This document shows positions 9,059 to 17,420 of a stretch of 64,000 nt of DNA, one piece after another. Location of the stretch: assembly GCA_965223905.1 (NCBI GenBank), contig CBDCXV010000011.1:2048001-2112000 (forward strand). The letters run 5' to 3'. The translations under genes were made by a program, and so were the position numbers. The first letter of the stretch is position 1, and each line of letters starts with the position of its first letter. This stretch comes from Candidatus Latescibacterota bacterium. GTDB taxonomy: Bacteria; Latescibacterota; UBA2968; UBA8231. Below the pieces are notes generated by a model that was not told where the DNA came from, did not search any database, and saw nothing but the letters and a program-made list of their open reading frames with translations.

Positions 9059-11012
9059 ATACATACAGACGGTTCGCCGAGGAGAGAAATGCAGTACTCG
9101 TCCTGCCAAAAAAAACAAACGACCGAGACCTTCGATCCCCTTGGCACCTCGTCGCAATCGACGTTATCCACGACTTGCTGAAAACCGCACTCAAGAGTTG
9201 ACCGCAGCAACCCCGGCACCCCCTCCTTTTGCCTTTCGTTCACCCCCCCATGCACAGCCCGCTTCGAGAGAAAATCCGAGTGGGCAGGTTGGACCAGTGC
9301 CATCGCTGCTGTTCGTCCTGGGGTAGGCCACTAAGCCGCTACAGGATAGGACAATACCTATTCGGCAGTGTATATGGTCCACGTTACAGGAATTCATTTA
9401 GAAGATGAACCTCCTTGTAGGATGGTCCTTATGTCGTGACGGTGGGTTTCTACGAATCGGAGCCTTGTCTGTAAATCTCCCAATTGCAACGGGATTTCAA
9501 GACCGTCCGCGTTTTGAAAATATTCATGCATTCTTCTCATGGCCTCATCATCCTTTTTTACAAACTCCTTGTACCTCGCAGCGCACTCGGGACATAAAGC
9601 GAGAAACTGGGCTTCGTGTTCCTTGGTCAAATAGTCTTTAGAGAGAGCTTCCACTGCTTCAAAGTAGTACTCGCCATCGCGTTTCTTGAACGACATTTCC
9701 TTTTGACAAATTTGACAACACATCTTCCCGCTGGTATTTGTATATTGCTCGCTAAGCCATGTACGAGTGTAGGCGGTCGCCTCAGTTATTCGAACGGACC
9801 TTCTGCGCGGCTCGTAGTCTTTGGTTGCGGCATCGTGAAGTTTTTCGGTAAGTCTTTCCCATCGACGATCAGGGTTTCTCACTGCCCTTGTCGGGAATTC
9901 GGTTTGTCTGAGCTGATCTCTCAGCTCATTTGGAGATTTTCCCTGTTTCCTCAAAAGGTCAAGGATTTCGGCCATTTGTTCCGCTTCGTGGACAGAACTG
10001 AAACCTAGATTCTTGGCTTGTAGGTTCCGTGTAAATTCCTTCGCTTGCGGCCGAGTCTGCTCGTCTCTCGCCTTTTTTGCCGTTTCTCCGAATTCAATCG
10101 TTTTGAGCCACTTCTTTCCTGTATCATATGTGAATCCATCGGGAAGACATTCAATTAGGGCATCTCCGGGACGGACAAAGCTATGCGAATCTCCATTTCC
10201 CTGTGGCACCCATTCTGCCTCTCTCAGATCATGTACGAGGCTTGAGGCTCCGCAATGGAATCCTCGACTTCTGCTTTTTCGGTACCTTGCTTCCAAACAA
10301 CTATCATCGAGCGAGTTCATCGTTCGCCAGATCAGTCGCGACTTATCGAGATCGGGTTTATCGAATAAAACCTTAAATTCAGAAATCGTGTAATCGAGAT
10401 CGATCCAATCGCGGAATCGGTCGCCAGGAGCAGATATCAAATGAGAATATTCGGGATGACTATCTGGAATCATTTGCTCATTGACCTGCAGCTGTGTCTG
10501 AGCACCCACCGCTCTGGCAAATTTCCCAAGTTTTTCCAGGTCAATCCCGAGCTTTGCATAAGCCGAGGAGAGCCCCCATTTGCTTGCCTGTTCACTCCGC
10601 GCTTTGTAGTAGGCGCTCAATCCCGTATCCAGATAGGGTAAATCAAGATAAACCATACCAGGTTTTCCCCACCACGTTTTCCCATCCAGGTTCTTATCAA
10701 TTTTGAAAATATAGAAATCTCGAAACAGGTCTGCCTGACCGTGGTTCTCCTCCACTAATGAGATAAATCTAACAATGTCTTGTTCATGGTTTTCTCCCGT
10801 AAGTGATGTTTCTATATATCGCCGTTTCAGAATCTCCCTTACGCGATCTGTTTCCTGAACTTCACAGACACCTATTTTTTCAAGAAAGTTATAGGCTTTT
10901 TCCTGCAAATTCTGGTCTTTTCCGGACGAATATACGGCTTTGGAGACACGAGGAAATATATCGTCGTTATCCAAATCATCACTTGGAAAGTAGCAGTCTC
11001 TCCCTTTTTTAT

Positions 11013-12476
11013 GGCTATATACGGGTTTTTCAACGTGGTATTTATAGCGTTTCCCCAATGAGATTTTTAGGGTTTCATACTGTACGGAATCGGGCCGGAA
11101 TCTGCGCAGGGATATCGAGGTCTCCGACGCACAGGTAAATCAGGTCGGCAAAGGCATCCAGAGTTTTAAATCCACTGGCTCGATTCTTGACCATGCGGAT
11201 AATGCGATTGAGCCCTTCGGCGGCGGCGTTGGTCAGGTGCGTGTCGACGAAGGCGGTGATGCCGGCCGCCTGCTTGCGCACCGTGTTGACGAACTTGCGC
11301 AGGGGCTGCAGGCGGCTGCGCAGGGCCGCCGTCGTCCACTTCTTGAGGAAGCGTTCGGCGGCCCAGCGCGCCTTGTAGCGCCAGAAGTGCTCGAACTCGT
11401 CCTTCAGGCGCCAGGCGCGGTAGATGCGGCGGTTGGCCTTCTCCAGGGTTTGGAGCGTGCGCCGATCCTTTCGCGAGCGCTGGGCGGAGTGATGCAGCAG
11501 CACCCAGCGCAGGCCCTTGAGCAGCTTGCGGTCCTCGCCACAGGCTTGCCGCCACTGCTCCTTGCGCACCTCGTCGACGGCTTCGTTGAGGGCCTTGACG
11601 ACGTGGAATCGGTCCAGGACCAACTCGGCGTTGGGACCATGCTGCCGGATGGCGCCGATGAAGGTCTCGCTCAGGTCGCAGCAGGCCCAGCGGATGCGGT
11701 CCTTCTGGAAGGCGCTGAGATGGTCCCGGAAAAACGCGTCGATGGTCTTCCGTGCCTTGCCCTTGCCGACCCAGACGACACGGGAGCGTTCCAGGTCGTA
11801 GACCAGGGTAGCGTATTTATGGCCCTTGGCGTAGGAGATCTCGTCGATGCCGAGGGTCTTCAGCCGGCGGATGCGGTGCCCCGTACGCCGGCGCTCGATG
11901 AGCCGGTGCAGCTGGTCGGACAGGGTCGACGGGGCCAGACCCAGCAGGCGCGCGGCGGCGGCCTGCGTCATCCACTGGCAGTACCTCAGCAGCAGGTATT
12001 CGAAGCGGTAGCTGACCTGGGCCGAGGGCGCCGCCCAGGGCACCTCCTCGACGCGACGGCCGTGGGTCGGGCAGCGGATCTCCCGAGGGGCGTGGTGCAA
12101 CCAGAGGGTACGGCCGCAAACGCGGACGTCGCGCCAGCGGCGGAACTCCATGACCTGTACGATCTTGCCGCGGCGCCCACACTCGGGACACCGGCACCCG
12201 TTCCTTTGGGGCTTCACCGCGACCACGACGGCCGCTTCTTCCCCGTGTCCTTCGAAGCACACGCCCACCGCGCGAAATCCCTTGAATTGGAACAGCTTGG
12301 AGACGAACTTCATAGCGGTCATAGGTCGCCTTCCCTTCCCTTTCTTGGGGAGTGCTTGATGGGGATACACCAAGCATAGGGAACGACCTATGGCCTTGTC
12401 ATGTACTCAGATGGACAGCAAGGGCTCAGGTACTTTCCGTACTTACGTTTCGGCGTTGAAAAACCCGGATAGACCC
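11013..12476 (-). mobile_element. Complete ISL3-family insertion sequence
   Basis: 23-bp imperfect IRs (GGCTATATACGGGTTTTTCAACG / GGGTCTATCCGGGTTTTTCAACG, 20/23 match); 8-bp TSD TTTTTTAT at 11005-11012 and 12477-12484. Confidence 0.95.
11075..12373 (-). CDS. ISL3 family transposase
   Basis: CRCPECG zinc finger, LGIDEIS, VLDRFHVVK, TNAAAEGLN…IRMVKNRASGF; the start may be 12322. Confidence 0.95.
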   Translation of the reverse strand: MVYPHQALPKKGKGRRPMTAMKFVSKLFQFKGFRAVGVCFEGHGEEAAVVVAVKPQRNGCRCPECGRRGKIVQVMEFRRWRDVRVCGRTLWLHHAPREIRCPTHGRRVEEVPWAAPSAQVSYRFEYLLLRYCQWMTQAAAARLLGLAPSTLSDQLHRLIERRRTGHRIRRLKTLGIDEISYAKGHKYATLVYDLERSRVVWVGKGKARKTIDAFFRDHLSAFQKDRIRWACCDLSETFIGAIRQHGPNAELVLDRFHVVKALNEAVDEVRKEQWRQACGEDRKLLKGLRWVLLHHSAQRSRKDRRTLQTLEKANRRIYRAWRLKDEFEHFWRYKARWAAERFLKKWTTAALRSRLQPLRKFVNTVRKQAAGITAFVDTHLTNAAAEGLNRIIRMVKNRASGFKTLDAFADLIYLCVGDLDIPAQIPARFRTV

Positions 12477-16900: not shown

Positions 16901-17134
16901 GGCGTAATACGTCTGAACGTTGCTACCGACAAAAACCTTGATGCGGTCTTCGGGGGTCCCCGGGACTACTTCGACAACTGCTCCCTTGACGGATGGGTTG
17001 GACGCGAGGCAAACGAGCTGGCCTGGGGCAAACTCCGCTTGGGGTCGACTGTCAGAAGTTGGTAACTGCAACTCTGCCCCTTCACGGAAGAATTTTCCTC
17101 TCTCGGCCCTGGAAAAATCATATTCCTGTTTCAT
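13985..17134 (-). CDS. SNF2/RapA-like helicase with an N-terminal BrnA-type antitoxin peptide
   Basis: [55 protein letters not shown]; begins [25 protein letters not shown]. Confidence 0.9.
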   Translation of the reverse strand: [1049 protein letters not shown]

Positions 17135-17420
17135 TGTACTGCCTTGCTTCATTGGTGGTTGCCTTGCGTGCGGAGATCAGCCGTATCCGGCCGCTTGAGG
17201 CAGTCTCTTCGCGATACGTATGACAAACGACCAGTAAACTACCTGTCCGATCCAGGCCAAGAGTGATCCACCGGGCCTCGTCCAAGCTGTGTTCCTCGTC
17301 GAACTCAGAGAGCGCTCGCGGATCCTGAAAAACGGTAGCAGCACGTTCGAACGTAATCCCATGGGCCCTGAGATTCTGTTCTGCCTTGCTGGAATCCCAT
17401 TCAAACTTATGCTGAAACAA
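17118..17420 (-). CDS. brnT: BrnT-family (DUF497) ribonuclease toxin
   Basis: FEWDSSKAEQNLRAHGITFERAATVFQDP…EEHS…EARWITLG…RIRLISARKAT..E. Confidence 0.9.
   Translation of the reverse strand: MFQHKFEWDSSKAEQNLRAHGITFERAATVFQDPRALSEFDEEHSLDEARWITLGLDRTGSLLVVCHTYREETASSGRIRLISARKATTNEARQYNETGI

Follow-up and report, generated by a model that had tools for sequence, protein, structure and literature searches.

In CapRel(SJ46) and PARIS, a toxin is held back by part of the phage-sensing protein. Here we describe a three-gene locus from Candidatus Latescibacterota bacterium (assembly GCA_965223905.1, contig CBDCXV010000011.1) in which the gene for a small toxin, BrnT, precedes an SNF2 helicase gene that appears to begin with a piece of a BrnA antitoxin, followed in turn by a gene for a sacsin-like GHKL ATPase. 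The stretch of DNA analyzed, called the window below, is 64,000 nucleotides (nt) long, and positions given without a locus handle (L009 and the like) refer to it. We put the probability at roughly 0.6 that the locus is an acquired anti-phage-type module, composed of an SNF2/GHKL DNA-sensing core and a swappable RNase effector, that would act through abortive infection.

The available part of an October 2026 preprint (10.64898/2026.09.30.754977) describes Tiamat as an anti-phage ATPase/DNase, shown to be so by experiment, and reports the B. cereus protein to be a single-strand DNase (ssDNase)/nickase, with helicase partners proposed to feed it DNA. The canonical system is a single gene encoding 1300-1780 amino acids (aa), for which the curation applied there requires a PD-(D/E)xK (NOV_C) nuclease. 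The same text distinguishes 'Type IV-A' Tiamat-like proteins, whose HNH-like C-terminus is without catalytic residues, and 'IV-B', a helicase-containing neighborhood without a methyltransferase. In that available part, HEPN is mentioned just for eukaryotic SACSIN homologs, and BrnT, MazF, and antitoxin tags are not mentioned at all.

Two further strands of earlier work bear on the helicase and its toxin. Table 1 of Anantharaman et al. 2013 (PMC3710099) lists an Swt1/Abi2-family HEPN domain fused to an SWI2/SNF2 ATPase (WQE_15321), and the portion of that paper available proposes that HEPN RNases fused to restriction-modification (R-M) systems are latent suicide effectors restrained by the DNA-targeting subunits. 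For BrnT and BrnA, the accessible text of a review (PMC11980606) describes toxin-antitoxin (TA) fusions between the two proteins, and antitoxin N-termini on defense ATPases are not described in it.

A conserved pair of SNF2 helicase and GHKL ATPase

The minus strand from 9394 to 17420 holds three translationally coupled genes, in the order brnT, SNF2 helicase, GHKL ATPase. A first-pass annotation of the window had described such coupling, and the coordinates confirm both the overlap of brnT with the helicase start and the 2-nt gap (13983-13984) between the SNF2 stop and the GHKL ATG at 13982. The brnT gene (17118..17420, minus strand, TTG start) encodes a BrnT-family RNase toxin of 100 aa that matches Pfam PF04365 BrnT_toxin over the full profile (E 1.3e-26). 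The helicase open reading frame (ORF) at 13985-17152 on the minus strand encodes 1055 aa from its first ATG (17152), which gives an overlap of 35 nt with brnT; counted from the second ATG, the gene (13985..17134, minus strand) overlaps brnT by 17 nt and encodes a DrmD-like protein of 1049 aa. The second ATG appears the likelier start, because the canonical brnA of the same genome has an identical start offset and because two database homologs begin at that point. The ATPase gene is split by an insertion sequence (IS) of the ISL3 family (11013..12476, minus strand). Its 5' part (12477..13982, minus strand, residues 1-502) encodes the sacsin/Tiamat-like ATP-binding domain and the region following it, and its 3' part (9394..11004, minus strand, residues 503-1038) encodes a helical/alpha-beta middle and a C-terminal HNH-like Zn-ribbon domain.

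The helicase contains the Pfam domains SNF2-rel_dom (2.6e-16) and Helicase_C (7.6e-20), has no frameshifts, and is 72-74% identical to intact homologs. The PADLOC model DrmD PDLC02623 matches it over the full length (E 4.6e-116), and NCBIfam NF038317 DISARM_DrmD gives 300.1 bits, under the cut-off of 610. Matches to HmaA (3e-40) and ZorD (1.9e-14) are weak or partial and both rank below DrmD. Zorya type I (ZorD) was ruled out, its match being weak and ZorABC partners not being found among the window ORFs, and the Hma/BREX-related type 1 system (HmaA) was ruled out as well, with neither a DUF499 ATPase nor an N6 methylase among those ORFs. The other SNF2 homologs (n = 86) align to the window helicase only from about residue 38. 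Short ORFs after the SNF2 gene in two loci (L010:8925-9209 and L011:8292-8606) copy its C-terminal ~70-85 residues at 39-54% identity, as if the helicase tail had been duplicated in part.

The 5' part of the ATPase gene codes for a GHKL domain of the sacsin type, recognized by Pfam SACS (1.7e-22) and by NCBIfam P_loop_sacsin (91 bits, cut-off 50). PADLOC TmtA matches the window ATPase at 1.9e-55, over only the first ~500 model positions, and matches the homolog in L009 at 9.7e-65 over residues 3-680. On these profile matches, the ATPase is assigned to the Tiamat (TmtA) family through its N-terminal ~500-680 residues.

Homologs were sought with an alignment of six intact GHKL homologs, scanned against the contigs of one genome per species, which yielded at least 548 confirmed GHKL relatives; the locus counts given below rest on 80 loci kept from these. 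By their record titles, the 80 loci span Latescibacterota, Poribacteria, Chloroflexota, Desulfobacterota, Acidobacteriota, Planctomycetota, and many Pseudomonadota. Clear GHKL homologs (1026-1093 aa) were found in 6 of 40 relatives of the window genome, every one of them with the same SNF2 directly upstream. Across the 80 loci, an SNF2 of the same family lies directly upstream of GHKL and on the same strand in 74; its end is within 150 nt of the GHKL gene in 67 (5 of these being partial at contig ends), and the two genes are separated by 0.5-2 kb in 7. The first-pass annotation had joined helicase and ATPase into one module from a single stretch of DNA and had placed that module in defense. 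Their adjacency in all 6 relatives and in 74 of the 80 loci bears out the first point, and the surroundings in other genomes, with R-M, TIR, and Abi-type neighbors, agree with the second: type I and type ISP R-M genes were seen in other loci, along with genes for TIR, AbiJ-like, PIN, MazG-like, and Schlafen/AlbA_2 proteins. Several other copies of the SNF2-GHKL loci are interrupted or split too.

The helicase is far better conserved than the ATPase. Against L012, the SNF2 proteins are 72% identical and the GHKL proteins 29-33%; against L041, the values are 84% for SNF2 and 28% for the C-half of GHKL. The much lower conservation of the ATPase fits a fast-evolving recognition part.

A different architecture was found in 6 of the 80 loci (L060, L064, L067, L074, L080, and L089). 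In L060 (1482-13138), GHKL closes a five-gene cluster that opens with an HTH-SNF2 of another DrmD subtype, continues with an AbiJ-like/Abi_C protein and a type III methylase, and has a type III restriction helicase as its fourth gene. In L074, the type III methylase and restriction helicase occupy the same places, and L064, L067, L080, and L089 have gene maps like that of L060, as judged from the map only. The GHKL family thus seems also to work in at least one R-M-like system. In one subgroup of the paired loci, an AT-rich ORF of ~205 aa lies between SNF2 and GHKL (L011:8769-9401, L012:11868-12485, and L014:3954-4562), and in L026, L027, and L068 it is read as an N-terminal extension of GHKL. 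Pfam searches at E up to 10 gave nothing usable for the ~205-aa ORFs or for accessory ORFs of 82/88 aa.

A recurrent RNase module

HEPN_Swt1 (Pfam) was detected in 38 of the 49 helicase N-terminal extensions scanned, and the catalytic RNase motif RN[RK]WAH is kept in 38 of 40 aligned sequences; the extensions of L066 and L088 resemble the HEPN ones by tblastn only. The extension is absent from 17 of the 69 loci in which the N-terminus of a same-family helicase is visible. In L057 (6207-7013) and L087 (6088-6968), DUF2283 and HTH_17 stand on the SNF2 N-terminus instead of HEPN, and the helicase N-terminus of L016 carries an N-terminal piece of CopG_antitoxin (E 6.8e-6). Small ORFs upstream of the helicase in L057 (6207-6521) and L087 (6088-6480) look DUF4258-like by eye only; for the L057 ORF, Pfam gave no hit at 0.001.

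Other RNase-type genes occur around HEPN-less pairs. L033 has a PIN ORF between SNF2 and GHKL, L040 has an AbiJ_NTD4 protein in that position and MazF behind the pair, and in L031 an ORF of its own matches HEPN_Swt1 weakly (8.6e-5; 23 bits, the cut-off being 27.5). A gene for MazF overlaps the GHKL end in L009 (7641-8151, minus strand), L012 (8314-8655, minus strand), L014 (403-744, minus strand), and L040. GHKL of L009, L012, and L014 ends with an additional acidic tail of ~33 residues; a Pfam search with the L009 tail at E up to 10 gave nothing usable. In L010 (12303-13086, plus strand), the tail sequence forms the C-terminus of a stand-alone small ORF between GHKL and MazF (~28/33 residues identical, by eye), and an antitoxin piece has therefore seemingly moved onto the GHKL core protein.

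Taken across these loci, an RNase module, be it a fused HEPN domain or a TA toxin docked through a piece of antitoxin, appears as a recurrent third part of the system and is likely its effector. BrnT, which the first-pass annotation had left as a side feature, moves to the center on this comparison. An RtcB RNA ligase gene was also seen directly upstream of HEPN-less pairs in L025 (5323-6878, as two ORFs) and L031 (5188-6642), which hints at RNA damage and repair around the system.

BrnT and its BrnA-derived tag

An alignment of 14 BrnT sequences has 16 invariant columns, and the window BrnT conforms to every one of them. A canonical brnTA pair (L095) lies in the same genome, 5.4-5.7 kb ahead of the window, and its 83-aa antitoxin starts at an identical distance from the stop of the toxin gene. 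At the window locus, a small BrnA with a C-terminal RHH domain was not found; the first 25 residues only are there, fused to the helicase. This tag (17060..17134, minus strand), which makes up the first 25 codons of the SNF2 gene from the second ATG, matches the N-terminus of canonical BrnA antitoxins of 66-83 aa (L095, L150, L158, and L159) up to the RHH start, and the 66-aa antitoxins of other genomes (L150, L158, and L159) run on past the tag into a C-terminal part, the one said to be the RHH domain in canonical BrnA. An E-Y-D motif is invariant in all 14 aligned antitoxins and tags. The match to canonical antitoxins upholds the earlier description of the helicase as BrnA-tagged, and on these alignments the tag is a BrnA N-terminus severed just before the RHH part.

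The tag is absent from the 86 other SNF2 homologs and present in two database homologs, P0007 (1054 aa) and P0008 (1050 aa), which are close relatives (83-87% identity over the first 60 residues). They show 0-1 changes from the window tag in 25 residues, whereas the adjoining linker differs at many positions. The constancy of the tag beside a variable linker argues for selection on the tag.

The RHH domain of BrnA is C-terminal (PMC11980606, in its accessible text), and this, combined with the alignments here, makes the N-terminus the candidate for binding the toxin. When BrnT and the N-terminal 60 residues of the helicase were modeled as a complex, the prediction scored 0.40, against 0.09 for the best control. 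In the benchmark of this score, 58 of the 80 solved complexes came up to the mark, as did 2 of the 110 mismatched pairs; at 0.60 or below, it was reached by just 7 of the 80 solved complexes and by both mismatched pairs. At least 94% of contacts agree between the prediction runs, and the partner pLDDT is at least 53. The structure table in the available part of a second review (PMC5086665) gives BrnT alone (3U97) and no BrnT-BrnA complex, so the score of 0.40 is not expected to reflect memory of a solved complex.

Antitoxin tags on other defense proteins

The window genome contains 6 solid BrnT genes, and a small antitoxin stands beside only one of them. Each of the other 5 overlaps a large downstream protein with a BrnA-like N-terminus, one of these being the window SNF2 helicase. 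The remaining tagged proteins are a Septu PtuA (PADLOC PtuA 1.4e-132 from residue 39) with PtuB adjoining and Druantia DruE beside it, a 1511-aa TmtA-like GHKL protein fused to an SF2 helicase, a second DrmD-like SNF2 (2.6e-172 from residue 118), and an FRG+TPR protein of type PDC-S15; the four loci are L102:1783-3840, L103:1618-6153, L104:7955-11368 (minus strand), and L105:1414-3103.

Beyond this genome, BrnT occurs in 103 of 168 sampled genomes of the phylum. To count as tagged and large, a downstream ORF had to have at least 398 aa. Such an ORF follows BrnT in 4 of the 50 top-scoring loci (L122, L149, L152, and L154), in none of 14 further BrnT rows, and in 4 of 6 loci that had been picked for a match length equal to that of the window (L157 and L160-L162). 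L122 joins the tag to PbeA. L160-L162 join it to a TmtA-like protein of the same type as in the window genome, in another family of the class. The other four (L149:1088-2281 on the minus strand, L152:567-2180, L154, and L157) have the BrnT and tag cassette of the window on an unrelated protein of 398-545 aa, which has only weak similarity to PADLOC PDC-S26. On this sampling, tag fusions appear to be a minority of BrnT loci, yet recurrent and conserved across genera.

The HNH-like C-terminus of the ATPase

The 3' part of the ATPase (the C-half) has no match to a Pfam family or to PADLOC TmtA, and as a single-sequence query of genome contigs it returned no relatives. Its AlphaFold2 model, built from an alignment of 70 homologs, has a pLDDT of 93.3. 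For the C-terminal domain (9412..9810, minus strand), the best Foldseek match is EcoKMcrA (E 5e-3), and VIA-align, run with residues 399-531 of the 3'-part model, ranks EcoKMcrA (Z 6.5, rmsd 3.0, 85 aligned) and TagI (Z 6.2) ahead of the HNH domains of Cap5, Cas9, IscB, and PtuB. These scores, modest yet consistent, suggest that the domain resembles the HNH (beta-beta-alpha-metal) fold. Residues C430, Q431, C433, C471, P472, and H521 are invariant in it; in the homolog alignment, the two CxxC pairs (CxxC...CxxC) and a late His are conserved, whereas the canonical HNH histidines, the usual catalytic residues, are not. The domain may bind DNA instead of cutting it. An HNH-like nuclease joined to GHKL had been predicted for this protein, and the HNH-like fold found by Foldseek and VIA-align supports one half of that prediction; the nuclease half is doubtful, with the catalytic histidines lacking. 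Residues 1-300 of the C-half could not be assigned a convincing fold with VIA or Foldseek, which gave just low-Z matches to helical repeats.

Proposed mechanism and alternative explanations

In the mechanism that we propose, the DrmD-like SNF2 translocase and the Tiamat/sacsin-like ATPase would together form a DNA sensor, with no methylase to mark self, and the non-canonical HNH-like domain that ends the ATPase would bind or nick DNA. The RNase on the helicase N-terminus would be the effector, its cutting of RNA stopping the infected cell (abortive infection). In most relatives, this effector would be the covalently fused Swt1-type HEPN domain. In the window genome, it would be the separately encoded BrnT, kept inactive on the 25-residue BrnA tag of the helicase and set free by a change in the state of the sensor, or by a phage that inactivates or degrades it, as in the 'guard' arrangement of PrrC-EcoprrI.

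A broader idea, which we hold tentatively and at slightly less than even odds, is that antitoxin-derived peptides have been grafted repeatedly on unrelated anti-phage sensors, so that a small RNase becomes a plug-in abortive-infection (Abi) effector whose release depends on the sensor's state. The grafted pieces would be N-terminal stretches of BrnA-type antitoxins (the first ~25-115 residues), a MazF antitoxin's C-terminal tail, and the DUF2283 domain, and the recipients would be DrmD-like SNF2, Tiamat-like GHKL, Septu PtuA, PbeA, FRG-TPR, and ankyrin proteins. HEPN at the same position of the helicase would then be the covalent equivalent of a docked toxin.

Several observations weigh against a sensor with a docked RNase effector. 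The abundance of BrnT (103/168 genomes) makes a chance adjacency of TA and defense genes plausible, although the tag fusion itself is left unexplained by it, and tblastn with the window BrnT found none in the 86 other SNF2-GHKL loci. The 17 of 69 loci without an extension mean that the helicase need not carry an RNase, and the core alone may act on DNA. The tag is not recognized by Pfam (first 60 helicase residues, E up to 10), its apparent identity comes from comparison with neighboring canonical antitoxins, and the complex prediction gives weak support to BrnT sitting on it. In the HNH-like domain the canonical histidines are lacking, so a role in DNA cutting is unsupported, and the fold matches are modest (Z 6.5 and Foldseek E 5e-3). 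Finally, the window copy is IS-disrupted, so its maintenance tells nothing.

The pair could instead be a DNA-targeting, restriction-like system in which the helicase feeds a Tiamat-like nicking or cutting protein, with BrnT and its tag forming an addiction module outside immunity; this module would stabilize the island, since the toxin would be freed once the helicase gene was lost. The ssDNase/nickase activity reported for B. cereus Tiamat and the helicases proposed as DNA feeders (10.64898/2026.09.30.754977, available part) would suit such a system, as would the 17 of 69 loci without an RNase module on the helicase, the failure to find BrnT in the 86 other loci, and the abundance of TA modules in the phylum. 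We nevertheless consider this explanation unlikely, since PD-(D/E)xK has been swapped for an HNH-like fold without catalytic histidines, since an addiction role fails to explain the active-looking HEPN domain covalently fused in most relatives, and since tags and toxins recur on many unrelated defense proteins. Alternatively, the tag could be an accident, in which the 5' end of brnA was brought onto the helicase by a deletion and the fusion was tolerated since the peptide still neutralized BrnT, with no regulatory meaning in a decaying island. Decay of the island is visible in the IS that splits the GHKL gene and in the IS fragment at 7985-8113, and the exact fusion is shared only by close relatives (83-87% over the first 60 residues). 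We consider such an accident quite improbable: five independent tag fusions to different defense proteins occur in one genome, the tag on TmtA-like proteins is kept in another family of the class (L160-L162), a MazF antitoxin piece and DUF2283 have undergone parallel fusions, and the tag itself shows 0-1 changes per 25 residues across three sequences beside a variable linker.

The remaining explanation takes the helicase for an orphan or degenerate DrmD of DISARM class 1 and the locus for the remnant of a DISARM island. DrmD is its best match in PADLOC (E 4.6e-116) and in NCBIfam, but the NCBIfam score of 300 falls below the cut-off of 610, DrmA/B/C and a methylase were not found among the window ORFs scanned or among ~160 neighbor ORFs scanned with Pfam in related loci, and GHKL is the constant partner in 74 of the 80 loci. 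We regard a DISARM origin as very improbable, and an acquired sensor and effector module remains our preferred reading of the locus.

The insertion sequence and the low-GC island

The ISL3 element that splits the ATPase gene is 1,464 bp long (11013-12476) and has 23-nt inverted repeats and 8-bp target-site duplications, TTTTTTAT, at 11005..11012 and 12477-12484. Its transposase (ORF 11075-12373, minus strand) matches Pfam DDE_Tnp_ISL3 (2.4e-66) and NCBIfam transpos_ISL3 (299 bits, cut-off 180). Removal in silico of 11005-12476, that is, the IS and one duplication, gives a single open frame of 1038 aa, the length that had been predicted for the repaired product, and the junction is colinear with the intact homologs of 1026-1093 aa. 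The genome contains 39 matches to the element, 18 of them full-length at 99% identity or more, the window copy included. From these near-identical copies and the intact target duplications it follows that the insertion is recent and the element active, or lately so. The window system is probably non-functional, its ATPase gene being split by the IS; brnT and the tagged helicase stay intact. Several of the ISL3 copies sit within 130 kb of the window, and a left-end fragment of the element, 80% identical, lies at 7985-8113.

The AT-richer island noted in the first-pass annotation is evident from the base composition. GC is 0.36-0.60 over about 5700-17400 (IS excepted), against 0.65-0.70 in the flanks, and this drop fits horizontal acquisition of the island. 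No tRNA was found in positions 1-30000, and a scan of 8900-17800 for promoter and terminator consensus sequences gave 2 sites against a shuffle mean of 4.2 and 5 against 10.2, in both cases fewer than in the shuffles. Further defense or TA cargo may lie among the plus-strand genes at 5751-9058 of the island. These comprise a Sel1-repeat protein (5751-6080), two ORFs without a family match (6082-6462, and 6617-7966 with 449 aa and GC ~0.40), a DUF6036 nucleotidyltransferase-like ORF (8169-8750), and a 103-aa ORF (8747-9058) that overlaps its end. A 68-aa ORF at 9191-9397 gave nothing usable in Pfam at E up to 10.

Implications

If the proposed reading is correct, the pair would be a widespread two-gene defense module, with at least 548 genome loci, that combines a motor of the chromatin-remodeler type with an ATPase of the sacsin/Tiamat type. 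It would be relevant to the cooperation of Tiamat-like proteins with partners and, by extension, to that of NO VEIN and sacsin, their relatives in eukaryotes. It would also offer a testable rule for the wiring of TA systems into immunity, in which the sensor carries the antitoxin peptide and the toxin (HEPN, BrnT, MazF, or PIN) is swappable. A 25-residue peptide that neutralizes BrnT would be a minimal antitoxin, useful to dissect BrnT control. For annotation, BrnT followed by a large ORF starting M-x-x-EYDFS would flag candidate defense genes.

Comparison with known systems

The locus had been called an undescribed defense operon that matched no named system. The conserved pair without a methylase supports this in part, and membership of the ATPase in the TmtA family, together with the resemblance to Type IV-A and IV-B of the preprint, speaks against it. 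The core is not wholly undescribed, as the available part of the preprint (10.64898/2026.09.30.754977) lists Tiamat-like proteins with helicase neighbors and an HEPN-SNF2 fusion was listed in 2013. The literature searched describes no antitoxin-tagged defense ATPases, although supplementary files, which lay outside the search, may hold cases. It likewise describes no constant pairing of SNF2 with an HNH-like GHKL protein and an N-terminal RNase slot, and no replacement of HEPN by TA toxins, a point on which supplementary files may also bear.

With Tiamat, the window ATPase shares the N-terminal sacsin/Hsp90-like GHL ATPase and the TmtA-homologous region that follows. It differs in having an HNH-like C-terminus where Tiamat has PD-(D/E)xK, and in having an SNF2 partner in 74 of the 80 loci, whereas Tiamat is a single-gene system. 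The C-terminus itself is like that of Type IV-A, an apparently HNH-like fold without catalytic residues, the fold scores being modest. The helicase neighbor and the absence of a methyltransferase recall IV-B, which is compared here through its description in the available text of the preprint. The fusion of a nuclease to the neighboring helicase, a feature of IV-B, may correspond to the HEPN-SNF2 fusion of relatives (38/49 extensions), and a methylase is absent from 74 of the 80 loci; the window helicase has the BrnA tag instead of a nuclease.

The helicase is similar to one PADLOC model of the class 1 DISARM protein DrmD over its full length, but it scores below the NCBIfam cut-off for DrmD and its constant partner is the GHKL ATPase. 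DrmA, DrmB (DUF1998), DrmC (PLD), and DrmMI were found neither in 11 window ORFs nor among ~160 Pfam-scanned neighbor ORFs of related loci, and the earlier statement that a methylase or other DISARM/Zorya partner is lacking holds for the 11 window ORFs scanned. The logic of effector restraint applied here is that proposed for HEPN-SNF2 proteins and PrrC-EcoprrI (PMC3710099); in the available portion of that paper, neither a GHKL/sacsin-like partner nor docking through antitoxin-derived tags is described.

BrnT/BrnA, known from Brucella abortus, shares with the locus the toxin family, the toxin-first order, and the overlapping genes (reviewed in PMC5086665 and PMC11980606, each in the part available). 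The antitoxin N-terminal motif M+xEYDFS..RG is common to the window tag and the canonical BrnT neighbors, and a helicase of 1,020 aa stands in place of the C-terminal RHH domain of the antitoxin. The locus differs from CapRel(SJ46) and PARIS in that a short linear antitoxin peptide is carried by many unrelated large proteins, the putative sensors, and the toxin is a separate small protein.

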